IMG/VR virus record: IMGVR_UViG_3300043449_001175
Coordinates: 35,139 to 99,138 of that record
Reading direction: 5' to 3' (one strand)
Length of the DNA stretch: 64,000 bases
DNA from: a virus
Part shown: piece after piece, positions 3-64,000 of the stretch
Position numbering within the stretch: the stretch's first letter is position 1
Layout: each line of letters opens with the position of its first letter
Notes under the pieces: generated by a model
Told to the model about the DNA's origin: nothing
What the model saw: the letters and a program-made list of their open reading frames with translations, nothing else
The model's database searches: none
Translations under genes and position numbers: made by a program

Positions 3-869
3 TTAATTGAACAAAATTTTGCCGGAACTTTTGATGGTGCGATATCAAAGTTTAATATGTATGCAAAACCATTATCGGTTCCTGAAATTCAACACAATGC
101 AAGAATTTTAAGACCAATTTATAATTTTTTAAATCCATATTGTTTAGATTGTGGTGCAAATGTAACACCAACCCCAACACCAACAACAACAGTTACACCA
201 ACACCAACCTCAGTTACTCCAACTCCAACACCTACACCATCGGTAACACCAGGTCTTTCACCAACACCAACCCCAACACCGACAAGTACACCATCACCTT
301 ATTTTGCATATCTATTTATAGAACCTCAATCAGGTTCAACTCTTATTGGTGAATACATGTACAATTTGGGTTCAACATTCTATGGATTTACAAATAACTC
401 AGCGCCAGACAATGACAACACAAATCCTGACTTATTCAATGATGACATGAATAATTATGTGTCTTTCTCAGGATGGAGTAATGGTTCATTCCCTTCAGTG
501 AGAACTCAAACAGTTCCACAGTCTTCGGGTGGTGTTGATTCATTTGGTAATTCAATATCGGCATATAATTTCACAACACACGAAGTACCAATTAATACAG
601 TTAGTGGTAACTCTTGGTATACGTGGATTATCCCAAATGATGCGATAAATGATGGAATACAACAAAAAATTGCTTATAGTGTAAATGGTAATCCAAACGC
701 ATTGACAACATCAATTATGGACAGCTCAATTTATTCTAGTACGTTTACTTATACAGGTACTACAATTCCTGTTGGTACTTATAGAGTTTACACAACATTT
801 GCTGACTTGTCATTCTATATAAATAACAACTTTAATACCGTATATTTTAAAGGTGATACTGTAATTTAA
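3..869 (+). CDS. Virion structural protein, 5'-truncated by the window edge: end of a LamG/concanavalin-like domain, Pro-Thr linker, and a ~185-aa C-terminal domain paralogous to 61296-62288
   Basis: The frame is open from nt 3 (LIEQNFAGTFDGAISKFNMYAKPLSVPEI, resembling a LamG C-terminal strand motif), so the ATG at 57 is internal. TPTPTP linker. The C-terminal AYLFIEPQSGST...YFKGDTVI aligns with the 61296 ORF. Confidence 0.7.
   Translation, partial: LIEQNFAGTFDGAISKFNMYAKPLSVPEIQHNARILRPIYNFLNPYCLDCGANVTPTPTPTTTVTPTPTSVTPTPTPTPSVTPGLSPTPTPTPTSTPSPYFAYLFIEPQSGSTLIGEYMYNLGSTFYGFTNNSAPDNDNTNPDLFNDDMNNYVSFSGWSNGSFPSVRTQTVPQSSGGVDSFGNSISAYNFTTHEVPINTVSGNSWYTWIIPNDAINDGIQQKIAYSVNGNPNALTTSIMDSSIYSSTFTYTGTTIPVGTYRVYTTFADLSFYINNNFNTVYFKGDTVI
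165..300 (+). repeat. Pro-Thr low-complexity (mucin-like) coding repeat
   Basis: ACACCA-type hexamer reiterations encoding TPTPTPTTTVTPTPTSVTPTPTPTPS. Confidence 0.9.
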
Positions 870-976: not shown

Positions 977-2224
977 ATGAAAATATTTGTTCAAATTGCC
1001 TCTTATCGTGACCCACAGTTGGTTCACACAATCAAAAACATGATTGAAAATGCGAAGAAACCAAAAAATTTACGATTTGGTATTGCAAGACAATTTCATC
1101 CCAATGATAAATTTGATGACTTGTCAGAGTACGATAAAGATAAAAGATTCAAAATCATTAACATTCCATACGAAGAATCAAAAGGTGTTTGTTGGGCAAG
1201 AAACCTAACACAACAACTTTATGATAATGAAGAATATACACTTCAAATTGATTCTCACATGAGGTTTGCTCCAAATTGGGATGATGAGATGATTAAGATG
1301 ATTAAACAACTCCAAAAGAAAGGTCATGAAAAACCATTACTTACAGGTTATGTTTCGTCATTTGACCCCGACAATGACCCTCAAGGGAGAATGCAAGAGC
1401 CATGGAGAATGGCGTTTGACAGATTTATTCCCGAAGGTGCGGTATTCTTCTTACCTGAAACAATTCCAGGTTGGCAGAACTTAACAGAACCTGTCACATC
1501 TCGTTTCTATTCGGCTCACTACTGTTTCACTTTGGGACAATTCTCAAAAGAAGTACAACACAACCCTGAATACTATTTTCACGGTGAAGAAATATCAATT
1601 GCCGCTCGTGCTTATACTTGGGGTTATGATTTGTTCCACCCACATAAAGTTTTGATTTGGCACGAATATACTCGTAAAGGTAGAACAAAACAATGGGATG
1701 ACGATAAAGCTTGGGGTGAGAAAAACAAACATTCACATTTTACAAACAGAAAGTTGTTTGGTATGGACGGTGAACAACAAGAAGGACATGATGGTCCTTA
1801 TGGTTTTGGTCCCGTTAGAACATTAAGAGATTACGAAAAGTACTCTGGTTTGTTGTTTGAAAAACGTGCGGTACAACAATATACTTTGGATAAGAACTAC
1901 CCACCGAACCCATATAATTTTGAATCTGAAGAAGAGTGGAAGAAAAACTTTGCTCAAGTTTTCAAACATTGTATTGATATTGGATTCTCTCAAGTACCTG
2001 AAAAAGATTATGATTTTTGGGTGGTTGCTTTTCACGGAGAAAATGATGAAACACTTTATAGAAAAGATGCTGACATCAATGAGATTAATAGAATGTTAAA
2101 TGACCCTGATGGATATTGTAAAGTATGGAGAGAGTTCCAAACAGAACATAAACCAAAGTATTGGGTTGTTTGGCCTCACTCAGTATCAAAAGACTGGTGT
2201 GAAAGGATTACGGGGAACCTGTAA
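977..2224 (+). CDS. Glycosyltransferase, GT60/Gnt1-like polypeptide GlcNAc-transferase family
   Basis: IFVQIASYRD start, GVCWAR, LQIDSHMRF (DSH metal motif), YFHGEE and WHEY match the Skp1/mucin alpha-GlcNAc transferase (Pfam 'GlcNAc') pattern. Confidence 0.8.
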   Translation: MKIFVQIASYRDPQLVHTIKNMIENAKKPKNLRFGIARQFHPNDKFDDLSEYDKDKRFKIINIPYEESKGVCWARNLTQQLYDNEEYTLQIDSHMRFAPNWDDEMIKMIKQLQKKGHEKPLLTGYVSSFDPDNDPQGRMQEPWRMAFDRFIPEGAVFFLPETIPGWQNLTEPVTSRFYSAHYCFTLGQFSKEVQHNPEYYFHGEEISIAARAYTWGYDLFHPHKVLIWHEYTRKGRTKQWDDDKAWGEKNKHSHFTNRKLFGMDGEQQEGHDGPYGFGPVRTLRDYEKYSGLLFEKRAVQQYTLDKNYPPNPYNFESEEEWKKNFAQVFKHCIDIGFSQVPEKDYDFWVVAFHGENDETLYRKDADINEINRMLNDPDGYCKVWREFQTEHKPKYWVVWPHSVSKDWCERITGNL

Positions 2225-2239
2225 TAATAAAATTAGTTA

Positions 2240-2974
2240 ATGAATATTACTAATATCCCTAAGTTTGTCGTTAATTTAGAAAGACGACCTGACCGATTAG
2301 AACATATCCAAAAAGAAATGGATTATATGGGTTGGGAATACGAGTTATTCAAAGCCGTTGATTTAAATAATCATGGTGGTTGTACTTTATCACACACACA
2401 AATCATTAAACTTGCCAAAGAACGAGGATATGACTCGGTTATGGTGATTGAAGATGATTGTACTTTTTTACCGTATTCGAAGGATTTGATAAATAAAATT
2501 GAAACCGAATCTGATGAGTTTGAATTTGGAATTATTAATCTTGCACCAACCTTAAACCGAGTAGTCAACCGTAGTGAAGAACAACCTTTATTTTTAGATA
2601 TTACAAATTTACCGCCAAAGAAAGAACATGAAAGAGGTATATTTGCAACTAACATGATAATTTATCATAGTTCAATTTATGATAAAGTTTTGGAAATGGA
2701 AAAAAAAGAAAACTTAGGTTATTATGCAATAGATGATTACATTTATCAATTTGTTTTACCAATCAGACAAAGTTATTGTCCAATATTACCAGTTGCCCCT
2801 CAAATGAGTAGTTGGTCTGATGTATCTCAAGGACAATACAATAATTTTTATACTCAAACTTATAATTGGAATTTATATAGTCCGTGTAAAATACCTTCAG
2901 GATATTTACATGGTACATTAACAAACGAACTTAAAACAAATAAACAACATAAAGAATTTACATATGTCAGTTAA
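2240..2974 (+). CDS. Glycosyltransferase family 25
   Basis: VVNLERRPDRL, F-x-AVD, GCTLSH and VIEDD motifs are typical of GT25. Confidence 0.8.
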   Translation: MNITNIPKFVVNLERRPDRLEHIQKEMDYMGWEYELFKAVDLNNHGGCTLSHTQIIKLAKERGYDSVMVIEDDCTFLPYSKDLINKIETESDEFEFGIINLAPTLNRVVNRSEEQPLFLDITNLPPKKEHERGIFATNMIIYHSSIYDKVLEMEKKENLGYYAIDDYIYQFVLPIRQSYCPILPVAPQMSSWSDVSQGQYNNFYTQTYNWNLYSPCKIPSGYLHGTLTNELKTNKQHKEFTYVS

Positions 2975-3845
2975 ATTTATTACATCAATATATAGCGATT
3001 TGTATGGTACTGAATACGGTGGTCGAATTGGTAGAGGAGGTCATTATCGATATAGTTTATTATCGCTTTTAAAAATGACTAATGCTGATTTTTTATGTTA
3101 TACATCAGATAGAGAGTTACCTTCATTACTCACATTTTTTTATGAAACACATGGTATATCATCAGATAAACTAAAATTTCAAGTGTTTGATATTGCAAAT
3201 ACAAAATTCAAAGATTTAATTAATCAATATAAAGATGTTGAAGTAACTAAAAAATCAGATAGATGTATTGAAGTACAATATAGTAAATTCCATTGGTGGT
3301 GGAACGAAGATAAGTCTTATGATTATTATTATTGGATTGACGCTGGATTGTCACATTGCGGATTAATCCCAGTTAAATACTTGGTTGGTACTCACCCCGA
3401 ACAAAGATATTATGAATCAACTTTATTCAATAATGATTTTTTGAAGAATCTAATTGAAGATACTGGCGATAAATTCTTAATTCTTGGAAAAGAAAATGAC
3501 CGAAATTATTGGTCAGGCACATTGGACCCTAAATGGTATACTAATTGGGAAAGAGGTGTTCATATTATTGGAGGACTATTTGGTGGTCATAGAGATAATT
3601 GGGATAAAATTGTTACACTATTTGAAGATTATACTAAAAATGTTATTACTGAGGATAAAGGTTTACCCCATGAAGAAAATATAATGACATTAATGTACTA
3701 TAATCATAAAGAATTATTTGAACGTAAACATTTTGATATTTGGTGGTGTAGGGATAATGCACCTGCAGGTGTTTCAGATGAAATGTTTGAACAAAATAAA
3801 AGTTTTTTTAAAATTTTAGAAGAATTTAATAGAATATATGAGTAA
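2964..3845 (+). CDS. HtrL/YibB (WlaTC)-like putative glycosyltransferase
   Basis: SKF...YYWIDAG, IIGGLFGG and HEENI motifs. Paralogous to the N-terminal half of the next ORF. Confidence 0.65.
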   Translation: MSVKFITSIYSDLYGTEYGGRIGRGGHYRYSLLSLLKMTNADFLCYTSDRELPSLLTFFYETHGISSDKLKFQVFDIANTKFKDLINQYKDVEVTKKSDRCIEVQYSKFHWWWNEDKSYDYYYWIDAGLSHCGLIPVKYLVGTHPEQRYYESTLFNNDFLKNLIEDTGDKFLILGKENDRNYWSGTLDPKWYTNWERGVHIIGGLFGGHRDNWDKIVTLFEDYTKNVITEDKGLPHEENIMTLMYYNHKELFERKHFDIWWCRDNAPAGVSDEMFEQNKSFFKILEEFNRIYE

Positions 3846-5511
3846 TATAACTTTAGTAACAGGTCTTTGGAATATTAAGAGAGATGAACTTGGTGAAGGT
3901 TGGTCTCGTTCATTCCAACATTATTTGGATAAATTTGAACAACTACTTAAGGTTGAAAATCCAATGATTATATTTGGTGATTCTGACTTGGAATCATTTG
4001 TTTTTGAAAGACGAAACAAAGATAATACAATGTTTATCTCTCGTAGTCAAGAATGGTTCAAAAACGAATTTTATGACAAAATACAAACAATCAGAACAAA
4101 TCCTGATTGGTATAATCAAGCAGGTTGGTTACCACAATCAACACAAGCAAGATTAGAAATGTACAATCCTTTGGTAATGTCAAAGGTTTTCTTATTAAAT
4201 GATGCCAAAATTATGGACCCATTTAATTCTGATATGATGTTTTGGATTGATGCTGGTTTAACAAATACTGTTCATCCAGGTTATTTTACACACGATAAAG
4301 TTTTGGAGAAATTACCTAACTATGTTAATAAATTTTCATTTGTTTGTTTCCCATATCAAGCCGAAAACGAGATTCACGGATTTAACTTTAATCAAATTAA
4401 TGGAATTGTTGGTGAAAAGGTAGAAATGGTTGCACGTGGTGGGTTCTTTGGTGGTCCAAAACACACAATAGGAGACATTAACGGGATTTATTACAATTTG
4501 TTATCATCCACATTATCTCGTGGACTTATGGGAACTGAGGAGTCAATATTCTCAATCATGTGTTACAAACACTCCGATTTAATTGATTACTTTGAAATAG
4601 AATCTAATGGTTTATTTGGTAAGTTCTTTGAAGATTTGAAAAATGAAACATTAGAAAGAAAAAACAAACAAGGTTTTACACCAATTAATGACGATTTGAA
4701 TCCTGATAACGCTGCTTTGTATGTAATTACATTTAATAGTCCAAAACAATTTGAAACATTGATTGATTCAATGACTCAATATGACAAAGATTTTTTAGAT
4801 AAACCAAAAAAGTTTTTATTGAATAACTCATCTGATTTATCAACTACCGAAAGATACTCGGAACTTTGTGAAATATATGGTTTTGAACATATCAAGAAAG
4901 ATAATTTAGGTATTTGTGGTGGTAGACAATGGGTTGCAGAACATTCTGAAGAAAATGGGTTTGATTTTCATTTTTTCTTCGAGGATGACATGTTCTTTTA
5001 CCCCCAAAAAGGAGATGTGTGTAGAAACGGATTTAATAGATACGTTTCAAATTTATATAAGAACACATTAGAAATAACAAAAAAGAATCATTTTGATTTT
5101 TTAAAGTTTAATTACAGTGAGTTTTATGGTGATAATGGTACCCAATGGTCGTGGTACAATGTTCCACAGAACTTTAGAATAGAACATTGGCCTGAAAAAC
5201 CAAATTTACCTGTTCACGGTCAAGACCCAAATGCTCCAAGAACAAAATTCAAACATGTAAGAACACACAATGGTATTCCATTCGTATCAGGTGAAATTTA
5301 TTATTGTAACTGGCCACAAGTTGTTACTCGTCATGGTAACAAGAAAATGTTTTTAGAAACAACTTGGGCACACCCGTTCGAGCAGACATGGATGAGTTTT
5401 ATTTTTCAAGAAACAATTAAGGGAAAAATCAATCCCGGACTATTACTTATGACCCCAACTGAACATGATAGGTTTGAATTTTATGATGGTTCATTAAGAA
5501 AAGAATCTTAA
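3838..5511 (+). CDS. Two-domain glycosyltransferase: HtrL/YibB-like N-terminal domain plus GT-A/GT2-like C-terminal domain
   Basis: ITLVTGLW, YNPLVMSK, FWIDAG, RGGFFGG and GTEESI in the N-terminal half. LYVITFN, NLGICGGR and FFFEDD in the C-terminal half. Confidence 0.7.
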   Translation: MSNITLVTGLWNIKRDELGEGWSRSFQHYLDKFEQLLKVENPMIIFGDSDLESFVFERRNKDNTMFISRSQEWFKNEFYDKIQTIRTNPDWYNQAGWLPQSTQARLEMYNPLVMSKVFLLNDAKIMDPFNSDMMFWIDAGLTNTVHPGYFTHDKVLEKLPNYVNKFSFVCFPYQAENEIHGFNFNQINGIVGEKVEMVARGGFFGGPKHTIGDINGIYYNLLSSTLSRGLMGTEESIFSIMCYKHSDLIDYFEIESNGLFGKFFEDLKNETLERKNKQGFTPINDDLNPDNAALYVITFNSPKQFETLIDSMTQYDKDFLDKPKKFLLNNSSDLSTTERYSELCEIYGFEHIKKDNLGICGGRQWVAEHSEENGFDFHFFFEDDMFFYPQKGDVCRNGFNRYVSNLYKNTLEITKKNHFDFLKFNYSEFYGDNGTQWSWYNVPQNFRIEHWPEKPNLPVHGQDPNAPRTKFKHVRTHNGIPFVSGEIYYCNWPQVVTRHGNKKMFLETTWAHPFEQTWMSFIFQETIKGKINPGLLLMTPTEHDRFEFYDGSLRKES

Positions 5512-5527: not shown

Positions 5528-6016
5528 ATGGGAAGGTTTATTATATCAGAAAATGAAAAAAAGAGGATATTGGGTTTATATCTTGTTGAATCTGAAGAAG
5601 AAATCACTTTAGTTGATGGTATTGAAAAAAGAATAGACAAAAATCCTAATCCAAAAGTACAGAGTATACTTCCTCCAGGTTTGTTTAAAAGTTATACAGT
5701 TTTATTAAACGGAGAAGAAATAATGGGTGGAAGTCCACAAACCTCAAAAAAATATACCTATGTTGGTTCTAAAGAGGGTGGTTTATTAAACGTAGTTATA
5801 CCTGACGATTCTGACAAGGCTTATGTAATGAATATTAATATTCCTGAAAACCTAAGAGGAAAGGGTATTGGTGCTAAAATATACCAAGCTGTTGCTAATA
5901 AAATTAATCGAACAGTAATTAGCTCAGGAGATAATGAAGCGTTAGGGATGATTGCGTCACAAACACCATCATCACAATCGTTTTGGAGAAAACATAAAAA
6001 TTTTGAACCCAATTGA
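5528..6016 (+). CDS. GNAT-family acetyltransferase with an N-terminal leader
   Basis: Acetyl-CoA motif A, INIPENLRGKGIGAKIY, and C-terminal SQSFWRK. Confidence 0.7.
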   Translation: MGRFIISENEKKRILGLYLVESEEEITLVDGIEKRIDKNPNPKVQSILPPGLFKSYTVLLNGEEIMGGSPQTSKKYTYVGSKEGGLLNVVIPDDSDKAYVMNINIPENLRGKGIGAKIYQAVANKINRTVISSGDNEALGMIASQTPSSQSFWRKHKNFEPN

Positions 6017-6112: not shown

Positions 6113-6514
6113 ATGGATTTTAATATTAAAAAAAATGCGACATTACCACTTTTAAAAATGCAAGTGGTTAGAGATGGTAGAAGTGAATACCAATCTTTTA
6201 TGGATTCTTTGGGTAATGCCTCAATTTTCTTTTCTATGATAAATGAAACATCTGGTATACCAAAGATTGTTTCAAAACCCGCATATATTACTGAAGTAAT
6301 TGGTGATGACCCAAACGCATTACCCGAATATTACGTATATTTTAAATTCACCGCTCGTGATACAAATACTATTGGTCGTTATGTTGGACAATTTTTGATT
6401 AAATATAATAACGGTCTTTTGGGTGGTATTGAAGGAAATCTTATTTTACCTCTAAGAGATGAGTTATACATCAATGTCCAAGAAAGTTTCATTATAGATA
6501 GTCCTTGTTGTTGA
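6113..6514 (+). CDS. Probable virion protein, BppU-N/Ig-like fold
   Basis: F-x-IKKNATLP-L start and Y-x-F-x(3)-DT-x(3)-G-x-Y-x-GQF pattern. Preceded by the late motif. Confidence 0.45.
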   Translation: MDFNIKKNATLPLLKMQVVRDGRSEYQSFMDSLGNASIFFSMINETSGIPKIVSKPAYITEVIGDDPNALPEYYVYFKFTARDTNTIGRYVGQFLIKYNNGLLGGIEGNLILPLRDELYINVQESFIIDSPCC

Positions 6515-6609: not shown

Positions 6610-9345
6610 ATGATATCAAACGAAGAAATTAAAGCGTTCTTGGAAGGTGGCGACCCCGAACAATTCATTGTGTCCATAGAATTTGATTATGTGACAGACG
6701 CAATCTACAAAATTAAAGAAGTTCCTGGTCAAGGAAAATCAATTCAAAAAGACCATTTTATACCTTTTGCTTGGGTCGGTGACCTAAAAGGTTTGAATTT
6801 TTATCAAGGTTCCAAAGGCTTACAAAAAGAAGCCATGTCAAAACATAAGATTGTTATTGATAAGTTAGAAACCCACGACAATGAAAGATTAGAGAATGGT
6901 TTAACCTATATGGTTAAATGTCTTGGTGGATACCGTTCGTTGGTTCAATTTTTCCGTGATGGTGGTATAGACCCTTGGGGTGATAGAGCAAAAGACAAGT
7001 TTCTTATGTTACCTCCTGTAGAACAATATCTTATTCAGAAAGAAAAAAGACTATTCAAAGGATACGAAGAATACAATGACATAACCCGATTTGTATTTGA
7101 CTTAGAAACGACTTCACTTGAACCAAAGGATGGTCGTATATTCATGATTGGAATGAAAACAAACAAAGGGTTCCACGAGGTAATTGAATGTGCCACAGAG
7201 GAAACCGAAAAGTTAGGTTTGGTTAGATTCTTTGATGCAATTAACGAACTTAAACCATCTATCATTGGTGGATACAACTCATTTAACTTTGACTGGTTGT
7301 GGATTTTTGAACGAGCTAAAGCACTTGGATTGGACATTAAGAAGATAGCTAAGTCACTTAACCCACAACGCACCATATCACAGAAAGAACAAATGTTGAA
7401 GCTCGCCAATGAGGTAGAAAAATACCCACAGACATCAATGTGGGGATACAACATCATTGATATCTTACACTCAGTTCGTAGAGCCCAAGCGATTAACTCA
7501 AACATCAAGTCGGCGGGTTTGAAATACATAACCCAATACTTAGAAATTCAAGATGAAGACCGTGTATACATTGACCACACAGAAATTGGTCCTATGTATG
7601 CTAAAAAGGAAGATTATTGGTTAAATGTTAAAAACGGAAAATACAAAAAGGCTGATAATCCACAATTTGATGACTTAGATACTCGTTTTCCTGGTACATA
7701 TACCAAGACTACAGGTGATAAAATTGTAGAGCAGTACCTTGACGATGACTTAGATGAAACCCTACGTGTGGATGACGAGTTCAACCAAGGTTCGTTCCTT
7801 TTGGCATCGTTGGTTCCCACAACTTATGAGCGTGTAAGTACGATGGGTACGGCAACTTTGTGGAAGATGATTATGTTGGCTTGGTCTTATAAGTACAACT
7901 TGGCTATCCCAGCTAAACAAGATAAGACTGACTTTGTTGGTGGATTGTCTCGTTTGATTAAAGTTGGTTATTCTACATCTGTATTGAAATTGGACTTTAG
8001 TTCACTTTATCCATCTATTCAGTTGGTTCACAATGTATTCCCCGAGTGTGATGTAACAGGTGCGATGAAAGGATTGTTGGGTTACTTTAGAAGTTCTCGT
8101 ATTATGTATAAACAATTGGCTGAAGAGTTTGAAAAGAGTGACCCTAAGAAGTCAAAGTCATATGACCGTAAACAGTTACCGATTAAAATCTTTATTAACT
8201 CAATGTTTGGAGCGTTGTCAGCACCACAAGTATTTCATTGGGGTGATATGTACATGGGGGAACAAATTACTTGTACGGGTAGACAATACTTGCGTCAGAT
8301 GATTGGTTTCTTTATGAAACGTGGATACGAACCATTGGTAATGGATACGGATGGTGTGAACTTTTCATCACCATCAGATGTTCACGAACGTAAATACATT
8401 GGTCGTGGTTTAAATTGGAAGGTAGTGGAAGGTAAAGAATACGTTGGAGCGGCTGCGGATATTGCCGAATACAATGACATATTCATGAGAGGTGAAATGG
8501 CTTTGGATAATGATGGTGTATGGCCGGCATGTATTAACTTGGCTCGTAAGAACTATGCTTTGATGACTGACAAAGGTAAAATCAAATTGGTTGGTAATAC
8601 AATTAAGTCAAAGAAACTACCAGGTTATATTGAAGAGTTCTTGGATAAAGGAATTAAGATGTTACTTCAAGGTAAGGGTAAAGATTTCATTGAATATTAT
8701 TACGAATACCTACAGAAGATTTATGATATGAAAGTTCCTTTGGCTAAAATTGCCCAAAGAGCAAGAATTAAACATTCTTTGAGTGATTATAAATTCCGTT
8801 GTACTCAAAAAACAAAAGCGGGTTCATTGATGTCACGTCAAGCACATATGGAACTTGCAATTCACCATAACTTAAGTGTGAACTTGGGTGATGTGATTAC
8901 ATACGTAAATAATGGTCAAAGAGCATCTCACGGTGATGTGGTAAAAAAAGGTGATAGTTTGGTTTTGAATTGTTATTTGTTGGACCCTGCGGAATTGGAG
9001 GCAAATCCTGATTTAACAGGAAACTATAATGTGGCAAGAGCGATTGCTACTTTTAACAAACGTATCGACCCATTATTAGTAGTATTCAAAGATGAAGTTC
9101 GTGAAGCGTTAATTGTAAATGACCCTGAAAAACGTGGAATATTTACAACCGCCCAATGTGAACTAATTAATGGACATCCATTAGGTGAAGGTGACCAAGA
9201 TGATTTGAATGATGTATTAACAATTTCTGAACAAGAAATGTCTTATTGGGGAAAACGTGGATTGGAACCTTTTTATATCTACGAAAAAGCGGAAGAAGGT
9301 TGGGAAAATCAAATAATTGGGTTACCAAATCTTCAAACCATCTGA
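6610..9345 (+). CDS. polB: DNA polymerase, family B, with 3'-5' exonuclease domain
   Basis: ExoI FDLETT, ExoII YNSFNFD, polymerase motifs DFSSLYPSI, KIFINSMFG and MDTDG, and RKNY. Confidence 0.95.
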   Translation: MISNEEIKAFLEGGDPEQFIVSIEFDYVTDAIYKIKEVPGQGKSIQKDHFIPFAWVGDLKGLNFYQGSKGLQKEAMSKHKIVIDKLETHDNERLENGLTYMVKCLGGYRSLVQFFRDGGIDPWGDRAKDKFLMLPPVEQYLIQKEKRLFKGYEEYNDITRFVFDLETTSLEPKDGRIFMIGMKTNKGFHEVIECATEETEKLGLVRFFDAINELKPSIIGGYNSFNFDWLWIFERAKALGLDIKKIAKSLNPQRTISQKEQMLKLANEVEKYPQTSMWGYNIIDILHSVRRAQAINSNIKSAGLKYITQYLEIQDEDRVYIDHTEIGPMYAKKEDYWLNVKNGKYKKADNPQFDDLDTRFPGTYTKTTGDKIVEQYLDDDLDETLRVDDEFNQGSFLLASLVPTTYERVSTMGTATLWKMIMLAWSYKYNLAIPAKQDKTDFVGGLSRLIKVGYSTSVLKLDFSSLYPSIQLVHNVFPECDVTGAMKGLLGYFRSSRIMYKQLAEEFEKSDPKKSKSYDRKQLPIKIFINSMFGALSAPQVFHWGDMYMGEQITCTGRQYLRQMIGFFMKRGYEPLVMDTDGVNFSSPSDVHERKYIGRGLNWKVVEGKEYVGAAADIAEYNDIFMRGEMALDNDGVWPACINLARKNYALMTDKGKIKLVGNTIKSKKLPGYIEEFLDKGIKMLLQGKGKDFIEYYYEYLQKIYDMKVPLAKIAQRARIKHSLSDYKFRCTQKTKAGSLMSRQAHMELAIHHNLSVNLGDVITYVNNGQRASHGDVVKKGDSLVLNCYLLDPAELEANPDLTGNYNVARAIATFNKRIDPLLVVFKDEVREALIVNDPEKRGIFTTAQCELINGHPLGEGDQDDLNDVLTISEQEMSYWGKRGLEPFYIYEKAEEGWENQIIGLPNLQTI

Positions 9346-10801: not shown

Positions 10802-12346
10802 TTACAATTGATACAACTTGGCATCAATTGGAAAATAATAAACTCCGTCAATAATTTTTGTATTTGAGTTATCAAAGATTATCATATCATCCAAACGTTT
10901 CATAAAAATCATCCAATTTGTTTGATATTTTTTAACATTTGCGGTACCATCAACTTTATACATGTCATCACTTCTTGTTATATAACTGAATGGTTTTACT
11001 TGTGCAGTTTTTTCAACACCATCAACCATAATCTTAACATCCACACCCGTCATCATGTCTTCTTTGTTTCCAAGTTCACCAATACGAGTTACATTTTCAT
11101 CACCAAATTGTTTCTTAAGTTTTTCAACAACAGCATCTTCAGTTTTATTACCTTTGTCTGAAGTTACCCCCATCACACTCATAATTGTTTTAAATGTTTC
11201 TGACTCTAATGAAAAAACTCTAAACTTAACTTTGTTTAATGTTTTTAACATTCTTGCCATTTCATTGACTTGTTCTCTTTGTGTTTTATCTGAAAATATA
11301 ATTGGTTCTTCACCTATTTTTGTAAGATATTTGTTTAAATCTTTTTTCAAGACACAAAACGCACTGTAATTTGTATTCAAATAATTGATAACCGACCTAC
11401 CTTCACCTTCCAAATCATACACACCCGACATTTGTCCTTTAGCATATTCATCTTTGTTGTAAAATCTGTCAGCAAATGTTTCTTTTAAAATTTGCATTAT
11501 TGCATTTTTGTATAGATTAAGGACATCACGGTTTGTATTGAATAATAATTTTGATGCCATTTTGTCTTGAGTAGAACAAGGTTCACTCTTAACTCCTTCA
11601 GTTAAAAATTCTTTTGCGGTTGTAGATTCTTTTACCGTTTTGTCTAACTTTCTTGAAAGTTCAGATTCTACATAATCCCAATTCACAACTTTCCAAAAGT
11701 TTTTAATATATTCATCTCTTCTATTTCTATATCTTAGATAATATGCGTGTTCCCAAACATCTAACCCTAAAATTGGAAATCCGCCTTGGTCAACAACATC
11801 CATAAGTGGATTGTCTTGGTTGGCGGTTGTCATAATCTTTAATGTTCCTCTTTTTGTGAGAACTAACCAACACCAACCTGAACCAAATCTGTCTTTTGCT
11901 TGACCATCAAATTTCTTTTTAAAGTCAGATAAAGATGAAAAACTTTGATTGATTTTTTTGAGTGTTATTGGACCCGGTTTTGTTGTTTTTGGTGTTAACA
12001 TTTTCCAAAACAATTGGTGGTTGTAAGCACCACCCGCATTATTTCTGATGAACTTGTTGAAACTGTCAATTGTTTTAACAATTTCTTCTAAAGTCATATC
12101 CTCATCATCTTTTAATGCTCCATTTAATTTATCAACATAACCTTTGTAGTGTTTGTTGTAATGAACACTCATGGTTTCGGGGTCAATAAATTGTTTTAGT
12201 GCTGAATAAGAATAGGGTAATCTTTCTATCTTAATATTTTTGGCTTCTGTGACAACTTTTTGTACTTTTTGTTCTTGTTGTCTTTTAATTTCTTTTTTTT
12301 GTAAATCTTCTTCAATTACTTCAATCCTATTTTTAAGATTCTTCAT
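10802..12346 (-). CDS. sodA: Mn/Fe superoxide dismutase (Mn-type signatures) fused to a C-terminal PD-(D/E)XK-like domain
   Basis: LPYSYSAL, HYNKHYKGY, NNAGGAYNH, FGSGW, NQD and DVWEHAYY (all metal ligands present). An extra ~270-aa C-terminus contains E...GVD...AQVK. Confidence 0.85.
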   Translation of the reverse strand: MKNLKNRIEVIEEDLQKKEIKRQQEQKVQKVVTEAKNIKIERLPYSYSALKQFIDPETMSVHYNKHYKGYVDKLNGALKDDEDMTLEEIVKTIDSFNKFIRNNAGGAYNHQLFWKMLTPKTTKPGPITLKKINQSFSSLSDFKKKFDGQAKDRFGSGWCWLVLTKRGTLKIMTTANQDNPLMDVVDQGGFPILGLDVWEHAYYLRYRNRRDEYIKNFWKVVNWDYVESELSRKLDKTVKESTTAKEFLTEGVKSEPCSTQDKMASKLLFNTNRDVLNLYKNAIMQILKETFADRFYNKDEYAKGQMSGVYDLEGEGRSVINYLNTNYSAFCVLKKDLNKYLTKIGEEPIIFSDKTQREQVNEMARMLKTLNKVKFRVFSLESETFKTIMSVMGVTSDKGNKTEDAVVEKLKKQFGDENVTRIGELGNKEDMMTGVDVKIMVDGVEKTAQVKPFSYITRSDDMYKVDGTANVKKYQTNWMIFMKRLDDMIIFDNSNTKIIDGVYYFPIDAKLYQL

Positions 12347-19100: not shown

Positions 19101-19311
19101 AGATTTCTTGGATTCTGTAAACCCAATCTTGGACGCAATCAGAAGAGACAGAGGTTTATATGACTTTAGAGTTACAGTTAGTAATTCACCTGAAGACTTA
19201 GATAGAAATACTATGACAGGTAAAATTTACTTGAAACCAACTAAAGCATTGGAATTTATCGACATTGAGTTCTTGATAACTCCAACAGGAGCGTCATTTG
19301 AAAATATTTAA
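16117..19311 (+). CDS. Contractile tail sheath protein with large Ser/Thr/Gly-rich insertion domains
   Basis: SPGVYTSERD N-terminus. C-terminal YYPW, PWFATAGYTRG, LYQGRINPI, IWGNKTL, RINVRRLL and LFEQND. Confidence 0.95.
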   Translation: MAVSNKVFVSPGVYTSERDLSFVAQSVGVTTLGLVGETLTGPAFEPIFITNYDDFESYFGGTIPEKFVNTQIPKYELAYIAKSYLQQSNQLFVTRVLGLSGYDAGPSWSITTIANVDGSTVGLNPSTGSTYSINFTGTTGGTEITYSTTFPSIIQTGNTYTQYNGGVSTINTQLYNQIQTIINNSGTTSGDSAYIFGTVAASDYDSLLSGYTAQTNVYNVSGLSESDADFTSPSDDTWYYANFDITTGDAYTGYSFYNVVSSITTAGSGVYTGTITGKTYSYSGTAYEGWNDVVVATLRSRGISLFTTDLHGPQYQITGTTDVILDNSGSYSGISQNPFAQFAISGYTDNAETPASFSFVTSMNSNDANYITKVFGISNFGKNRVETPLFVEEQFQTMLTYGYNKGYVRGINSSLISLPGLRNPVTTNTIANYLEQYKSPESPWVVSQLYGSTVERLFKFYSIADGNSANTQIKISIQNISFNNLSFDVAVRDFFDTDANPVILEKYTNCTMDPTTNNYIAVKIGTSDGEYALNSKYIMLEMDVDANPESVPCGFEGYVIRNYGSATPPFPVYKVAYNFPGEVIYNPPFGVVTNPPFSYTGFDNKTVSGGDRVRSTYLGISSQIGYDPLFFEYKGKQKPLDLCVESDAPSWNYVTKGFHMDSGATVVSIVTGPTSGSPAFDCGVASFQRDPETSANPYYQIQARKFSFLLQGGFDGWDIYNESRTNTDRFILGGTGYQAGACPTTRYPNATGWGAFKPIAISNFTDFANTDYYAYLLGINTFSNPEAVNINVFATPGIDYVNNSNLVEDSISMVTFDRADSIYICTTPDTAMFAPVTNPADFIYPTEAVDNLDNTGIDSNYTATYYPWILVRDTVNNTQIYIPPTNEVCRNLALTDNISFPWFATAGYTRGLVNAVKARKKLTQEDRDTLYQGRINPIATFSDVGTVIWGNKTLQIADTALNRINVRRLLLQARKLISAVAVRLLFEQNDAKVRQDFLDSVNPILDAIRRDRGLYDFRVTVSNSPEDLDRNTMTGKIYLKPTKALEFIDIEFLITPTGASFENI

Positions 19312-58175: not shown

Positions 58176-60914
58176 ATGGCGTTAGTAAATAAATTATTTC
58201 AAAATTGTTTCAATTATACAGGAGATACAATTTATAAAACATTTACAATTGATGATGCTAGTGGATGGACAACAACACAAAGTTACGTTATTTATAGTGG
58301 TGATGGAGCTTGTTATGTTTACTTGGGTACTACTTTGGGTAGTCCAGTATCAACATATCTATCACCTACTGGAACAAATGTTAGTGGTGCTTGTAATTCA
58401 TCAACAGGATGTCCGTCAGTTAACACCAACATGTACCCAAACAATTTGTTTTACACGTTTTCGGCGTGTTGTGATGGGTCAACATTTAGTTTTAGACGTG
58501 GTGACATTGAATTGGGTTCCGATTATGTTAATGGTACGACAATGGCTCTTAGTTATGTTGGGACTGGTGGTACTTTTAATGGTTGTGCAACTGTAATCAC
58601 AGGATATACCGGTTCAACAATATATACCGACAATAATTGTACTTTTAGTTATTTATCAACATTCTCGGATTGTTCTGATTGTGAAATATATTCTCCTTGC
58701 CCAACACCAACTACAACACCAACACCAACTACAACACCAACACCAACTATAACTCCAACACCAACTATAACTCCAACACAAATACCGCCAAGTCCAACAC
58801 CAACCTCAACACCATTTAATAATGGTAATACTTTTGCATATACGATAACAGTAACGGGCGCTTGTGAGACTGGAATTGGTGCGGCATTACTCACCGCAAG
58901 TGGTGGTACTCCACCATATACGTTTGATTGGTACAATCCTAATTTAGGTACTGGACCGTATAAATCAAACTTATCTGCCGGTACATATTTTGTTAGAGCT
59001 AATGATTCAACAGCACCAACAAATAATGAATTTTTTATTAATGTTGTTATTGGTTCTGGTTTGACAATAGGATTTCAAAGTGAAATTGCAACAACATGTG
59101 GATTAAATAATGGTTCATTAACAGTAACTGCAGAATCAAGTTGTAATGTAATTAATTATTATTTATATTCGGCTTATGGATTTGTTGATTCTCAAACAAA
59201 CTCAACAAATATTGCGACATTTGATAATTTATCTGCGGGTACTTATTCAGTAACTGCGATTGATTGTGGTGGTTGTTCAGGAACTTCAGAAACATGTATT
59301 ATATATTCATCAAACACTCTTGATTATGGATTTTATATTGTAAATGATACTGAATGTGCTAGTCCGACAGGAAAGGTATACGTTACTGGTGTTACAGGTA
59401 ACTCACCATTTACTTATGAGTGGTCTAATGGTGTAACAGGTGATACTATTACAGGATTAACAGCTGGTGGTTATGGAGTTACAGTAACATCATCGGATGG
59501 TTGTGTTTTATCTAAAGTTGCCACGGTTGATTTTGTTCCAAGTATTGGGTTAGGTTCATGGACTGCGGTTACACCATCTTGTTTTGTTGCTGATGGTTCA
59601 TTAACATTAACAATAACGGGAGGAACAGGTCCTTATTATTATTCAGGTTCAAATGGTACCGTAGCAATAACATATGCGACTTCATATGTATTTTCAGGTT
59701 TATCTTCAGGACCATTCTCTGTTGATATTACCGATGCTGCTTTATGTAAAGCAACATTCTCAACCGTATTACAAACGCCAAACACATTTAATAGTTTAGA
59801 TGTAACAACAACAAATTCTAATTGTAGTAGTAATGATGGAAAGATATCAATCACTTTGGATGGTGGACAAATACCGTACACATATACTTTAGTTTATCCT
59901 GATTCATCTGTTGTTAATGCGGTTTCAAATTCAACCGCATATGATTTTGTTAATCTTGAAAGTGGAACTTACACTGTATATGTTTCTGATAATACAAGTT
60001 GTGTTTACCAAGAAGAAACAACAATTATCGCTGAAAATTTATATACTGTAACAACAACAAGTACGGGTTCAACATGTAATTTGTCTAATGGTAGTGTTAC
60101 ATTGGTATTATCAACAGGTGGAACCGCACCATATACATATCAATTAAGTACCGGACAATCATTAAATACTAGTTTTAGTGCTGCTACATTTGGGGGATTA
60201 TCAACAGGAACTTATGTTTATAGTGTAACGGATGCTACAGGATGTGTCCAAACAGGAAGTGTTAGTGTGTCATTTGGTACACCATTACAATACTCTTTAT
60301 ACCCAACAGGATGTGGTACGGGTTCAGGTGGAACAATTACTGCTTTAATTAGTTCAGGTACACCACCATTTACGTTTACTTGGTCTGATAATATTAGTGG
60401 TAATCCTCAAAACATTGTCGTAACTGGTCTTACGGGTGGAACATATAGTTTAACAATTGTGGATGCTTCAGGATGTACTCAAACAAGAAATACGGTTATT
60501 AGTTGTACGGCAATTGAATCTACATATCAAATTTATACGATGTGTGAGAGAGAATTTGAATATACGTCAGGTACTGAAAGAGGAATTCTTCAAATGTTAA
60601 ATGAAGGTTATAATGATATTATTTCTGGTCACACAAATTGTTTATTAAGTGCTGCGACATTTGTTGCTCAAGTTGAGGTTAGTGGTACGACATATACCGA
60701 TTCATTTTACACTGGTACCACACTATTAGACATCCCAACAAATCAACAATGGTATGATGCTGTTGAAACATTATTATTATCAATACCCGGTGTTAGTAGT
60801 GTTACAATTGATACTACATCAAGTGTTGTAACAATAGCAACAGAAGGTGAATTAGCAAACCAACAAATAATAATTGACCTGATAATTCAATATGACATTA
60901 ATTGTGTGAGTTAA
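58176..60914 (+). CDS. Fibre/adhesin-like virion protein with a Pro-Thr linker and tandem SprB-like repeats
   Basis: Repeated SGGTPPYTFDW / TGNSPFTYEWSNG / GGTAPYTYQL ... L-x-x-G-x-Y-x-V-x-x-x-D-x-x-GC units. TATTTAA at 58164. Confidence 0.7.
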   Translation: MALVNKLFQNCFNYTGDTIYKTFTIDDASGWTTTQSYVIYSGDGACYVYLGTTLGSPVSTYLSPTGTNVSGACNSSTGCPSVNTNMYPNNLFYTFSACCDGSTFSFRRGDIELGSDYVNGTTMALSYVGTGGTFNGCATVITGYTGSTIYTDNNCTFSYLSTFSDCSDCEIYSPCPTPTTTPTPTTTPTPTITPTPTITPTQIPPSPTPTSTPFNNGNTFAYTITVTGACETGIGAALLTASGGTPPYTFDWYNPNLGTGPYKSNLSAGTYFVRANDSTAPTNNEFFINVVIGSGLTIGFQSEIATTCGLNNGSLTVTAESSCNVINYYLYSAYGFVDSQTNSTNIATFDNLSAGTYSVTAIDCGGCSGTSETCIIYSSNTLDYGFYIVNDTECASPTGKVYVTGVTGNSPFTYEWSNGVTGDTITGLTAGGYGVTVTSSDGCVLSKVATVDFVPSIGLGSWTAVTPSCFVADGSLTLTITGGTGPYYYSGSNGTVAITYATSYVFSGLSSGPFSVDITDAALCKATFSTVLQTPNTFNSLDVTTTNSNCSSNDGKISITLDGGQIPYTYTLVYPDSSVVNAVSNSTAYDFVNLESGTYTVYVSDNTSCVYQEETTIIAENLYTVTTTSTGSTCNLSNGSVTLVLSTGGTAPYTYQLSTGQSLNTSFSAATFGGLSTGTYVYSVTDATGCVQTGSVSVSFGTPLQYSLYPTGCGTGSGGTITALISSGTPPFTFTWSDNISGNPQNIVVTGLTGGTYSLTIVDASGCTQTRNTVISCTAIESTYQIYTMCEREFEYTSGTERGILQMLNEGYNDIISGHTNCLLSAATFVAQVEVSGTTYTDSFYTGTTLLDIPTNQQWYDAVETLLLSIPGVSSVTIDTTSSVVTIATEGELANQQIIIDLIIQYDINCVS
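58701..58779 (+). repeat. 18-nt tandem repeat, about 4 copies, encoding PTPTTT/PTPTIT
   Basis: CCAACACCAACTACAACA x2 followed by CCAACACCAACTATAACT x2. Confidence 0.9.
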
Positions 60915-61295: not shown

Positions 61296-62288
61296 ATGGC
61301 AGAAATTTATGATATTATTGTGGTTAATGAAGCGAGCGGTTGTCAAAACGCTGTAACCAATCAATATACCATTACAGGTTGTAATCAAACAGTCCTTGTT
61401 AAATTTGACGGGACAAACAATGCTGTTGGACCATTTGACATCTATACGGGTAGTACTGGAACAACGGCTGTATATACAGGTGTTACAAGAACTGAAATGA
61501 TATATGGTGTTGTATTAACACTTACAGACCCATCAGCATTTTGTGGTACACCAACACCTACACCTACTCCAACAATAACACCATCTTCGGTAACACCAAC
61601 ACCTACACCAACATCAACAGTTACACCCACACCATCGGTTACTATTGGTATTACACCAACACCTACATCTACAACAACACCAACACCGACACCTTCAATC
61701 ACACCATCAAGCACACCGTCAGTTGGAACTGCTTATCTATTTATTGAACCTCAATCTGGTTCAACCAACATTGGTCAATATATGTTTGATGGTGGATATA
61801 ATTTCTATGGGTTTACAAACTTATCGGGACCTGATACCTCGTCACAAGTCCTCTTTAGTAATGATATGAATGGATACGTATCATTTACAGGTTGGACTGG
61901 TGGTGTTTTCCCAACAGTTAGGACACAATCGGTCCCACAAGTAAGTGGTGGTGTTGATGCTTACGGTAATAGTATTGTTGCTTACAATTTTACAACACAT
62001 GAGGTACCAGTGAATACAGTTTCAAATCAAGCTTGGTACACTTGGATTATTCCAACAGGTGCAACTAATAACTTAATACAATATCAAATTGATGTTGATT
62101 CTTTTGGTAATCCAAATTCTATGACAACATTAACTATGGATTCAACAATATACACAAAAACATTTAATTACACTGGTTCAACAATTCCTACAGGCGTTTA
62201 TAGAGTTTATACAACATTTGCAGATTTATCGTTTTATTTAGATAATGGTGGAAACACAATTTATTTCAGAGGTAATTCAGTAATATAA
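61296..62288 (+). CDS. Virion protein: small N-terminal domain, Pro-Thr linker, and C-terminal domain paralogous to ORF 3-869
   Basis: ~55-aa TPTP linker and AYLFIEPQSGST...YFRGNSVI domain. TATTTAT at 61270. Confidence 0.7.
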   Translation: MAEIYDIIVVNEASGCQNAVTNQYTITGCNQTVLVKFDGTNNAVGPFDIYTGSTGTTAVYTGVTRTEMIYGVVLTLTDPSAFCGTPTPTPTPTITPSSVTPTPTPTSTVTPTPSVTIGITPTPTSTTTPTPTPSITPSSTPSVGTAYLFIEPQSGSTNIGQYMFDGGYNFYGFTNLSGPDTSSQVLFSNDMNGYVSFTGWTGGVFPTVRTQSVPQVSGGVDAYGNSIVAYNFTTHEVPVNTVSNQAWYTWIIPTGATNNLIQYQIDVDSFGNPNSMTTLTMDSTIYTKTFNYTGSTIPTGVYRVYTTFADLSFYLDNGGNTIYFRGNSVI

Positions 62289-62311: not shown

Positions 62312-64000
62312 ATGAGCAATTTAGACTATACTAATCCAATAACATCTAATCAATTATCTTCACAACAATCGGTTGTAAAAAATTCGGTTTTTGGTGTTAC
62401 TTTTTCAGTTTTAAATTCAGGTGGGTACATGGAAGTGTACAATTTGTCTGATTTACAATTTGTGTACACTGGTGGTACAGGTCTAATTACAGGGTCAACA
62501 ATTCCAATTCAATTTAACAAAGGTATTAATAATACGTTTAGTCCTGATGTATTAACTTTAAGTAATGATTTAATTACTTCAGGAAGAAGAAGATTGGGAA
62601 TGCTTGCTTATGTTCAAGAAACAGGTTTAATATACCAATTTACAGTACCAAACTACGATTATTTATGGTCTGCAGTTACTGCACAAACAGGAACATCAGC
62701 CGTTACTTATACCGATTACTCAACATTAGTTAATAATCGTTCACAAGCAGGTCAAGATTTTATTAATGTTTGGACAGCATCAACAATTGATGGTTATAAC
62801 GCTCCTTGGAGTGGTGCAACATGGAGAGTTTTACCAGGTTCATATCCAGCCATTACAGGAGGAACATATAACTCAGGAACAACTACATTAGAATTATTTA
62901 ATTCAACAGGTGGAACAATATCTATAAGTGGATTTACATCAGGAGGTGGGGGTAGTCCTTTAACTGTTGACGGCATTTCGAATGTCACTAACATTACATT
63001 TAGCGGTGCTTCAGTTGTTGATGATGGTGGTGGTGCAATTACGGTGGTTATTAGTGGTGGTACGGGAACTTCAGGTACTAGTGGTACATCAGGAACATCA
63101 GGTTCAAGTGGTACATCAGGTGAATCAGGAACTAGCGGTACTTCAGGAACATCAGGTGAATCAGGAACTAGCGGTACTTCAGGTGAGTCAGGAACTAGCG
63201 GTACATCAGGTGAGTCAGGAACTAGTGGTACATCAGGTGAGTCAGGAACAAGTGGAACATCAGGAACTTCAGGTGAGTCAGGAACTAGTGGTACTTCAGG
63301 AACTTCAGGTGAATCAGGAACTAGCGGTACTTCAGGAACATCAGGTGAGTCAGGAACTAGTGGTACTTCAGGTACATCAGGTGAATCAGGAACTAGCGGT
63401 ACTTCAGGAACCAACGGTACTTCAGGAACATCAGGTGAATCAGGAACTAGTGGTACATCAGGTGAATCAGGAACTAGCGGTACATCAGGAACTAGTGGTA
63501 CATCAGGTGAATCAGGAACTAGCGGTACATCAGGAACTAGTGGTACATCAGGTGAATCAGGAACTAGCGGTACTTCAGGAACATCAGGTGAATCAGGAAC
63601 TAGCGGTACATCAGGAACTAGCGGTACTTCAGGAACATCAGGTGAATCAGGAACTAGCGGTACATCAGGAACATCAGGTGAATCAGGAACTAGCGGTACA
63701 TCAGGAACTAGCGGTACTTCAGGAACATCAGGTGAATCAGGAACTAGTGGTACATCAGGTGAATCAGGAACTAGCGGTACATCAGGAACTAGTGGTACAT
63801 CAGGTGAATCAGGAACTAGCGGTACTTCAGGAACTAGTGGTACATCAGGTGAATCAGGAACTAGCGGTACTTCAGGAACTAGCGGTACATCAGGAACATC
63901 AGGTTCAAGTGGTTCTTCAGGATTGAGTGGTGTAGATGGAACATCAGGTTCAAGTGGCACATCAGGTGAATCAGGAACTAGCGGTACTTCAGGAACATCA
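62312..64000 (+). CDS. Fibre/decoration protein with a long Gly-Thr-Ser/Gly-Glu-Ser triplet repeat, 3'-truncated by the window edge (missing from the ORF track)
   Basis: ATG 62312 (TATTTAA at 62300, 12-nt spacing). The frame reads [12 protein letters not shown]...[10 protein letters not shown]...[14 protein letters not shown] and is open to the window end. Confidence 0.85.
63065..64000 (+). repeat. 9-nt-unit coding tandem repeat (about 100 Gly-X-Ser triplets)
   Basis: Units GGAACTAGC/GGAACTAGT/GGTACATCA/GGTACTTCA/GGAACATCA/GGTGAATCA arranged in higher-order blocks. Confidence 0.95.

Follow-up and report, generated by a model that had tools for sequence, protein, structure and literature searches.

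The subject of this work is a cluster of four glycosyltransferase (GT)-like genes, positions 977-5511 of a 64,000-nucleotide stretch of viral DNA, hereafter the window, which is the final 64 kb of the 99,138-bp viral contig IMGVR_UViG_3300043449_001175 (C1) of IMG/VR (Table 1). With an estimated completeness of 34%, this contig should come from a jumbo phage whose genome measures about 290 kb, and the presence of sheath, tube, baseplate hub and baseplate wedge genes indicates a myovirus; the G+C content (GC) is about 33%. The four open reading frames (ORFs) lie on the plus strand and contain five GT-like domains; 15 nt separate the first from the second, the second and third overlap by 11 nt, and the third and fourth by 8 nt. 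They are found exactly as an earlier reading of the letters alone (the sequence-only reading) had drawn them, and Pfam searches, profile-profile comparisons and fold comparisons now give them their assignments. All four proteins are predicted to be soluble, since a hydropathy scan revealed neither a membrane-like segment nor a signal-like N-terminus in any of them, the peak 19-residue hydropathy being 0.89. In a megablast search of 50,697 phage records the cluster had no match.

By its sequence, gene 1 is a firm member of Pfam PF11397 ('GlcNAc'), that is, of CAZy family GT60 (E = 1.1e-67, 229.4 bits for a gathering cut-off of 21), and it also matches PHROG 24687 from end to end (E = 5.5e-164). 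The ASYRD/DSH/GEE-type motifs already pointed out in the sequence-only reading are indeed present: in an alignment of 43 sequences sharing 35-86% identity, conservation is complete or reaches at least 90% at Y10-R11-D12, D92-S93-H94 and G203-E204-E205; it is at least 90% for D92-S93-H94, the DxH metal motif, and strict for E204, E205 and H229. Characterised GT60 enzymes transfer GlcNAc onto the hydroxyproline of Skp1 or onto Thr of trypanosome mucins, and the member Gnt1 modifies hydroxyproline of a cytoplasmic protein.

The AlphaFold model of gene 1 (predicted local distance difference test, pLDDT, 95.6) has a GT-A fold followed at the C-terminus by a beta-rich domain some 90 residues long (approximately amino acids (aa) 325-415). 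When this model was submitted to Foldseek, almost all of the top matches listed were polypeptide GalNAc-transferases (ppGalNAc-T). An independent all-against-representatives structure search placed mouse GalNAc-T1 first (Z 21.1, root-mean-square deviation 3.4 over 268 residues); Toxoplasma GalNAc-T3 came next (Z 19.6, 267 residues), ahead of generic GT-A enzymes with Z of at most 17.0 and 187-247 aligned residues, TarS excepted. GalNAc-transferases of this type form family GT27; they start mucin-type O-glycosylation, and the known ones prefer Thr adjoining Pro. Gene 1 is without the type II membrane anchor and the ricin-type lectin domain of GT27, for which Pfam gave no match, and a PDB sequence search with gene 1 or gene 4 also gave none. 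It is consequently a structural analogue or a distant relative of GT27, not a member. Altogether gene 1 looks like a starter of protein O-glycosylation, an argument drawn from its modelled fold and its family.

The product of gene 2 matches GT25 (PF01755; E = 2.2e-13, 51 bits for a cut-off of 24) in two stretches, the best of which covers aa 6-44 only. The N-terminal half of gene 4 matches HtrL_YibB (PF09612; E = 7.1e-18, 65.6 bits for a cut-off of 24.1); the 76.6 bits of gene 4 fall short of the NCBIfam (TIGR02192) cut-off of 264.9 for an equivalog of E. coli YibB, and the NCBIfam profiles detected nothing beyond HtrL in the cluster. No Pfam or PHROG match was found for gene 3. By hhalign it is homologous to the N-terminal domain of gene 4 (probability 94.9%, E = 4.7e-8, 221 columns), with the motifs WIDAGL, GG-FGG and EE in common, and on this sequence evidence we consider it a paralogue of that domain and a putative GT. 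The C-terminal half of gene 4 gives 22.4 bits with TAGT (PF20691), below the cut-off of 27.5, and matches phrog_842 at E = 2.7e-5. The AlphaFold model of the whole gene 4 protein (pLDDT 79.5) has as best structural matches enzymes with two GT-A domains, namely human LH3, ColGalT1, LARGE1, Mimivirus R699 and K4 chondroitin polymerase. The profile and structure searches envisaged with the sequence-only reading have thus returned PF11397, PF01755 and PF09612, and placed the fold of gene 1 nearest to ppGalNAc-T.

Relatives of GT60 are abundant in metagenomes, with more than 7,000 detected and the best 120 having 80-93% identity. We fetched 80 related loci from IMG/VR, in which GT60 is 73-97% identical (75-97% across the lineage); 71 of them have both genes, gene 4 being 54-99% identical. 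The 133-aa ORF and the gene of the family B DNA polymerase (PolB) are conserved beside these flanks in most of the 71 loci, and homologues of the 942-aa ORF, 45-95% identical, are present upstream of GT60 in related contigs. Between GT60 and gene 4 the interval spans 1.6-9.3 kb, with all genes on the plus strand, and we observed at least 25 architectures made from about 60 gene families. The allele with the pair GT25 and gene 3 is the most frequent, at 14 loci. Elsewhere the interval contains GT10 fucosyltransferases, GT2, GT1/4-like or PLOD-type enzymes together with tailoring genes (CmcI- and FkbM-type methyltransferases, sulfotransferase, carbamoyltransferase, UDP-galactopyranose mutase), and the largest cassettes reach 13 genes. 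In the relative G001 (295 kb, 98% complete, GT60 93% identical) the gap between GT60 and gene 4 is 17.5 kb. The GC of the cassette genes is 0.29-0.32 (0.30 for the GT25 gene) versus 0.36-0.37 for GT60 and PolB. The four genes at 977-5511 thus represent one version of an island with conserved flanks, GT60 and gene 4, and a hypervariable interior, and are no fixed pathway. Such diversity is in keeping with a glycan that is exposed and diversifies. Upstream of the window, on the minus strand (C1:14800-30500), there is a second and larger glycan locus; it contains at least five GT2 domains, GT11 and two GT1/4-like genes, as well as UDP-glucose dehydrogenase-like, CmcI-type and other methyltransferase, PhyH dioxygenase and WbqC genes and a short DegT fragment. 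Scattered among these genes are those for a dUTPase and a PolB-type exonuclease.

The same enzymes are found in distant phages. Among the 50,697 cultured-phage records, GT60 is present in four jumbo phages only, XacN1, Xoo-sp13, Stenotrophomonas CM1 and RAS14, where it is 44-47% identical to gene 1 and lies a few kb from a gene 4 homologue with 41-42% identity. The XacN1 cluster, ORF334-ORF330, encodes GT60 (47% identity), gene 4 (41%) and a homologue of gene 3 (30%); its cassette holds a carbamoyltransferase, and no GT25 is detectable in it. G001 and XacN1 have 18 detectable proteins in common, of which the best conserved are GT60 (47%, 394 bits) and gene 4 (40%, 426 bits), followed at a distance by proteins such as the tail sheath (79 bits). 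Since GT60 and gene 4 are far above the other proteins, this module either moves between genomes or is constrained to an unusual degree. In further viral lineages a GT60 of 58-73% identity lies in a different genomic context, and most of them keep a gene 4 homologue, usually 1-6.5 kb downstream. Virions of XacN1 give at least two Schiff-positive bands, which its authors tentatively ascribed, by analogy with PBCV-1, to ORF328 and to the GT60 homologue ORF334 (Yoshikawa et al. 2018, PMC5852040). In searches of a full-text library we found no other paper tying these genes to virion glycoproteins. XacN1, with a GC of 50%, encodes about 15 proteins with Pro-Thr (PT) regions, including the 3,313-aa ORF325 adjoining the cluster. 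A blastn search with a 781-nt PT-coding stretch of XacN1 matched XacN1 and Xoo-sp13 only, a supportive result of low sensitivity.

Four proteins of C1 have PT regions, the shortest with 46 residues and the longest with about 300. The longest belongs to a 466-aa protein (C1:5264-6664) encoded directly after the major head protein gene; its approximately 300 residues of TETPTNTPT-like repeats make it a candidate for a mucin-like head decoration. The 942-aa ORF (C1:33179-36007) upstream of GT60 carries a 52-residue Pro-Thr linker (aa 706-757). This protein has no PHROG or Pfam match and is probably a virion protein, so that of the virion gene with a Pro-Thr linker announced by the sequence-only reading the linker is confirmed, the virion identity being an inference. 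The start of this ORF is preceded at 12 nt by TATTTAT, as are other structural genes: indeed TATTTA[TA] occurs 10-30 nt upstream of many of them, for instance 12 nt before 5528, 6113, 14206, 43781 and 58176, and its sequence and position are consistent with a late promoter. The 330-aa PT protein (61296-62288) adjoins the collagen-like tail fibre gene. In G001, seven proteins have PT regions.

Two other possible acceptors had been proposed in the window together with the Pro-Thr linkers, and both are real as sequence features. The Gly-X-Y repeat of GTS/GES type at 63068-64000 belongs to a protein that matches tail-fibre and collagen-like PHROGs with E-values down to 1.6e-35. The [ST]GxT motif is present 95 times contig-wide versus about 30 expected from within-protein shuffles, with a concentration in large structural proteins, the 942-aa protein having 13 versus 2.0 expected. 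Of the proposed acceptors, the PT regions alone were strengthened, as described below; we saw no link between the enzymes and either the GTS repeat or [ST]GxT. As a separate observation, the tail sheath protein (16117-19311) is unusually long (1,064 aa), with its sheath domains in the last 300 or so residues; the N-terminal 770 residues have no family match and hold most of its 11 [ST]GxT motifs.

The association between GT60 and PT proteins was examined by counting a DNA pattern coding TPTxTPTP, with the reversed pattern as a control. The pattern was found in 9 of 11 GT60-positive large phage genomes or fragments, with 2-16 matches each, and in none of 10 GT60-negative large phages (RaK2, GAP32, Atu_ph07, 121Q, phiKZ, Bellamy, B23, T4, G and RSL1); the reversed control gave a single match, in one GT60-positive genome. 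The one-sided Fisher test gives p = 1.9e-4, not corrected for relatedness. For its PT part, the co-occurrence expected by the sequence-only reading is thus observed.

We also looked at bacteria, using one genome per species. We found GT60-like proteins encoded at no fewer than 559 places, and the best 80, from bacteria or metagenome-assembled genomes (MAGs), were examined (887 kb). A gene 4 homologue is near the GT60-like gene in about 36 of these 80, and the GC of the loci, 0.29-0.71, tracks that of their own contig. The TPTxTPTP-coding pattern is present in 21 of the 80 loci, with 186 matches versus 0 for the reversed control. Twelve GT60-like loci, all from Burkholderiales or Neisseriaceae, adjoin tssF of the type VI secretion system (T6SS). 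The betaproteobacterial T6SS loci with GT60-like genes (37-48% identical to 977-2224) carry TssE, TssF, PAAR and Rhs. In the three loci checked by Pfam and ORF scan, those of Ralstonia sp. 25C (chromosome NZ_CP196737, 1086153-1099475), an Achromobacter MAG and Paraherbaspirillum soli, the VgrG beside the GT60-like gene has a (TP)n linker of 45-136 residues, and these spikes contain the domains Phage_GPD, Phage_base_V and Gp5_trimer_C. The position of a GT60-like gene beside a (TP)n VgrG suggests an undescribed modification of T6SS spikes; this link was unexpected, and a search of the same full-text library found no paper linking GT60-type enzymes to VgrG. In a marine contig the gene order is PT protein, 144-aa ORF, GT60, GT32-like GT, PT protein. 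Separately, the closest 'bacterial' homologues of GT60 and gene 4 (69-72% and 59-64% identity) come from MAG contigs of Saprospiraceae, Bacteroidia and Melainabacteria. Five of these six contigs have a GC of 0.33-0.39 and one contig is 230 kb long; they may be mis-binned jumbo-phage contigs, or they may hint at a Saprospiraceae-like Bacteroidota host.

The best reading of these data, which we regard as reasonably probable, is a cytoplasmic O-glycosylation of Thr-Pro regions of virion proteins. In the mechanism that we infer, from donor sugar and acceptor residue to the order of steps and the biological benefit, gene 1 would be a soluble, Mn-dependent GT-A enzyme acting in the cytoplasm of the infected cell and transferring the first sugar from a UDP-sugar to Thr (or Ser) in the (T-P-T-x)n regions of structural proteins. 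This first sugar would probably be an N-acetylhexosamine (HexNAc), most likely GlcNAc, and the acceptors probably head-decoration, fibre and baseplate-associated proteins. The cassette enzymes, here GT25 and an HtrL-like one, and the two-domain gene 4 would then extend the glycan, probably with a contribution from the enzymes of the second locus upstream of the window. As the cassette differs between close phages, the glycan would differ too, giving 'glycotypes', and the likely benefit would be protease resistance, stiffening of the linkers and a variable surface coat. The sequence-only reading had likewise assumed that GT60 primes hydroxy-amino acids and that the other GTs extend the glycan; family, fold, solubility, co-occurrence and the Schiff-positive bands of XacN1 speak for it, all of them indirectly. 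This core of the earlier interpretation withstood all the tests made here, and the interpretation as a whole is supported in part.

Several points weigh against this reading. Neither GT60 and the cassette genes nor the upstream glycan genes are preceded by the TATTTA[TA] motif, and PolB is not either. The glycan genes have replication genes (PolB, dUTPase) for neighbours, and their expression may therefore precede that of the structural genes. The Schiff-positive bands of XacN1, reported without mass-spectrometry confirmation, could come from co-purifying glycans. The GT25 and HtrL families are known from bacterial lipopolysaccharide (LPS) loci, and the C-terminal domain of gene 4 has its faint similarity, through the TAGT score and phrog_842, to DNA-modifying GTs. 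The co-occurrence counts are few and phylogenetically non-independent, which reduces the effective sample to roughly five lineages, and the two GT60-positive fragments in which the pattern is absent are 54% and 74% complete. Finally, the acceptor, the donor and the glycan are all putative in this phage.

An alternative would be a remodelling of the host envelope, with the LPS core or O-antigen, a capsule or a teichoic-acid-like polymer as the glycan concerned, or the making of a free or lipid-linked oligosaccharide during infection, for instance as a superinfection block, the phage proteins staying unmodified. The families GT25 and HtrL_YibB would agree with this, as would the O-antigen-like content of the upstream locus (WbqC, DegT fragment, GT11, several GT2s, CmcI-type methyltransferase), a variable cassette between conserved flanks, which is typical of O-antigen and capsule loci, and the absence of a late-promoter-like motif from the cluster. 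We consider it unlikely, because G001 has no candidate for a polytopic flippase, polymerase, ligase or initiating phosphoglycosyltransferase, its maximum being 4 hydrophobic segments in 249 aa; a crude hydropathy scan of all ORFs of G001 and C1, made without profile searches, found no polytopic protein of Wzx, Wzy, ABC or ligase type of suitable size. In addition, the module is 40-47% identical between phages of Xanthomonas or Stenotrophomonas and those of a 32%-GC environmental host, and its maintenance across unrelated hosts is hard to reconcile with host-specific lipid acceptors, while the fold of gene 1 is nearest to a polypeptide transferase and the gene is linked to PT-repeat proteins. 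Proteins other than those of the virion, from the host or non-structural ones of the phage, might also be the substrates, or the sugar might be placed on hydroxyproline and not on Thr, as for Dictyostelium Skp1. This would suit the known activity of Gnt1 on a cytoplasmic protein and, again, a cluster not under the late-like motif, and potential hydroxylases exist: a PhyH-type 2-oxoglutarate (2OG) dioxygenase in the upstream glycan locus of C1 and two PF13640 2OG oxygenases in G001 (C1:288908-289207 and 291415-291681). However, XacN1, Xoo-sp13 and G002 have no PF13640 or PhyH match and yet possess GT60 and PT proteins, so that hydroxylation is no conserved partner of the module; the hydroxyproline linkage was for this reason demoted to an alternative. 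Since, moreover, the PT proteins whose role can be guessed sit in or by head and fibre modules or carry a head-decoration-like signal, and the virion proteins of XacN1 stain as glycoproteins, we find these possibilities quite improbable.

The closeness of the cluster to a DNA polymerase, which it adjoins in this lineage and from which it is a few kb distant in XacN1, recalls a further option, the glycosylation of hydroxymethylated phage DNA bases, as done by T-even or TET-associated GTs, in order to evade restriction. The resemblance of the gene 4 C-terminal domain to TAGT and to phrog_842 (beta-glucosyl-HMC alpha-glucosyltransferase, HMC being hydroxymethylcytosine) points the same way, and anti-restriction modifications would likewise be expected to diversify. 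Nevertheless PF00303, the thymidylate-synthase (TS) family, has no match in the 98%-complete G001, which means that no TS-type dCMP/dUMP hydroxymethylase is present there, and the only ThyA-like gene of XacN1 has a canonical score (264 bits); Tet_JBP (PF12851) has no match in G001 either, a weak argument as the control genomes gave none. The DNA of XacN1 is cut by BssHII, NaeI and SpeI (PMC5852040). No known DNA sugar modification comes near the complexity of cassettes that reach 13 genes and include sulfo-, carbamoyl- and methyl-transferases, and not only is the TAGT match below the Pfam cut-off, but the structural matches of gene 4 are protein and polysaccharide GT-A enzymes. A role in DNA modification thus appears very improbable to us.

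Returning to the glycosylation of virion Thr-Pro regions, a wider proposal, which we put forward tentatively, is that the pair formed by GT60 and HtrL/GT-A is a widespread, mobile cytoplasmic mucin-type module for the (Thr-Pro)n linkers of contractile injection machines, the virions of several jumbo-phage lineages and the VgrG of betaproteobacterial T6SS, with a hypervariable cassette in the phages giving strain-specific, serotype-like virion 'glycotypes'. The novelty of the main reading, a glycosylation of the virion, is partial, as the authors of XacN1 proposed a phage-encoded glycosylation for their homologue in 2018; the new features are the GT60-type initiator, the long PT-repeat acceptors and the serotype-like cassette. 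If the main reading is true, an abundant group of environmental jumbo phages would join long mucin-like Thr-Pro virion domains to a conserved mucin-initiator-like enzyme and a swappable glycan cassette, through which otherwise similar phages would differ at their surface. The consequences would extend to the stability, adhesion and typing of phages and to host recognition, and a compact cytoplasmic O-glycosylation toolkit for PT linkers would become available. To our knowledge, phage-encoded virion glycosylation has been demonstrated only in mycobacteriophages and suggested once elsewhere, for XacN1.

Table 1. Features of the glycosyltransferase cluster, its neighbours and the candidate acceptors in the window
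Feature	Position	Strand	Remarks
942-aa ORF, 3' part	3..869	+	Starts upstream at C1:33179; candidate acceptor, probable virion protein
Pro-Thr linker DNA of the 942-aa protein	156..311	+	Tandem ACACC-type repeat at 164-284
Gene 1, GT60-type (PF11397) GT-A	977..2224	+	415 aa; conserved 5' flank of the island
Gene 2, GT25	2240..2974	+	244 aa; variable cassette; only in some alleles
Gene 3, HtrL-like single-domain putative GT	2964..3845	+	293 aa; variable cassette; only in some alleles
Gene 4, HtrL_YibB (about aa 1-255) and GT-A C-terminal domain (about aa 290-540)	3838..5511	+	557 aa; conserved 3' flank
162-aa ORF, faint GNAT-like signal (E 0.04, below cut-off)	5528..6016	+	TATTTAT 12 nt before start
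133-aa conserved ORF, no assigned function	6113..6514	+	43-98% identity; always between gene 4 and PolB
Family B DNA polymerase (PolB)	6610..9345	+	Conserved neighbour; outside the glycan system
912-aa protein, 46-residue PT region, weak Hoc-like head-decoration signal	58176..60914	+	Candidate acceptor
330-aa protein, 65-residue PT region	61296..62288	+	Candidate acceptor
Collagen-like (Gly-X-Y: GTS/GES) tail-fibre protein	62312..64000	+	Open at window end

Concerning the neighbouring genes, the 162-aa ORF is without a homologue throughout the 80 related loci and is for this reason considered allele-specific. The PolB of the window has no close relative in cultured phages, only those of Salinibacter phages being found, with 22% identity, and the phage can therefore not be placed beside XacN1. 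Farther on, a 514-aa protein encoded on the minus strand (10802-12346) contains an Fe/Mn superoxide dismutase domain (Sod_Fe_N and Sod_Fe_C) and about 280 further residues without assigned function.

When compared with known systems, the locus resembles O-antigen and capsule loci by its lower-GC variable cassette of GT and tailoring genes between conserved flanks, and by the presence of fucosyltransferases (FucT), methyl-, sulfo- and carbamoyl-transferases and Glf. It differs from them in that the hydropathy scan of the 98%-complete G001 revealed neither an initiating phosphoglycosyltransferase nor a flippase, a polymerase, an ABC exporter or a ligase. With Gnt1 of Dictyostelium and the mucin OGNT of T. 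cruzi, both GT60 enzymes, gene 1 shares the 229-bit profile match and the DxH, EE and distal His residues; like Gnt1 it is predicted to be soluble, and its candidate acceptors are rich in Thr and Pro like the trypanosome mucins. Unlike these enzymes it is encoded by a phage, has the additional beta-rich domain of about 90 residues at its C-terminus, has no conserved prolyl hydroxylase partner and is followed by a variable GT cassette. The GT27 enzymes of animals and Toxoplasma offer the closest solved fold (about 268 residues) and the same DxH metal motif, and their preference for Thr by Pro fits the (TPTx)n repeats, whereas the identity is only 12-16% and the phage enzyme, with neither anchor nor recognised lectin domain, would act in the cytoplasm and not in the Golgi.

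Among phages, XacN1, Xoo-sp13, CM1 and RAS14 have GT60 and gene 4 in common with the window, and XacN1 in addition has many (TPTx)n proteins and virions that stain for glycoproteins, although it is otherwise an almost unrelated phage with a carbamoyltransferase cassette and no detectable GT25. Its authors identified neither the GT family nor the acceptors, nor the variability of the cassette (PMC5852040). The mycobacteriophage system is similar in showing that such phage-encoded systems exist. In these siphoviruses of Actinobacteria, phage GTs reportedly O-glycosylate Ser/Thr-rich parts of capsid and tail proteins (work said to be that of Freeman et al. 2023, in Cell Host Microbe). The acceptors of the mycobacteriophages are said to be short C-terminal tails, in contrast to the long internal PT repeats proposed here; as far as we know, the GT families of these phages differ and include no GT60, and we know of no hypervariable cassette described for them. 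Virion glycosylation by phage GTs is presented as established for mycobacteriophages in the citing passage of PMC12582341.

The giant viruses PBCV-1 and Mimivirus (R699/L230) also have a glycosylation that is virus-encoded, cytoplasmic and independent of host secretory glycosylation. They are viruses of eukaryotes, with N-linked sugars in PBCV-1 and hydroxylysine-linked ones in Mimivirus, and the likeness to the present locus seen here is one of structure: Mimivirus R699 matches the model of gene 4, as do human LH3 and ColGalT1, and the window likewise encodes a collagen-like fibre.

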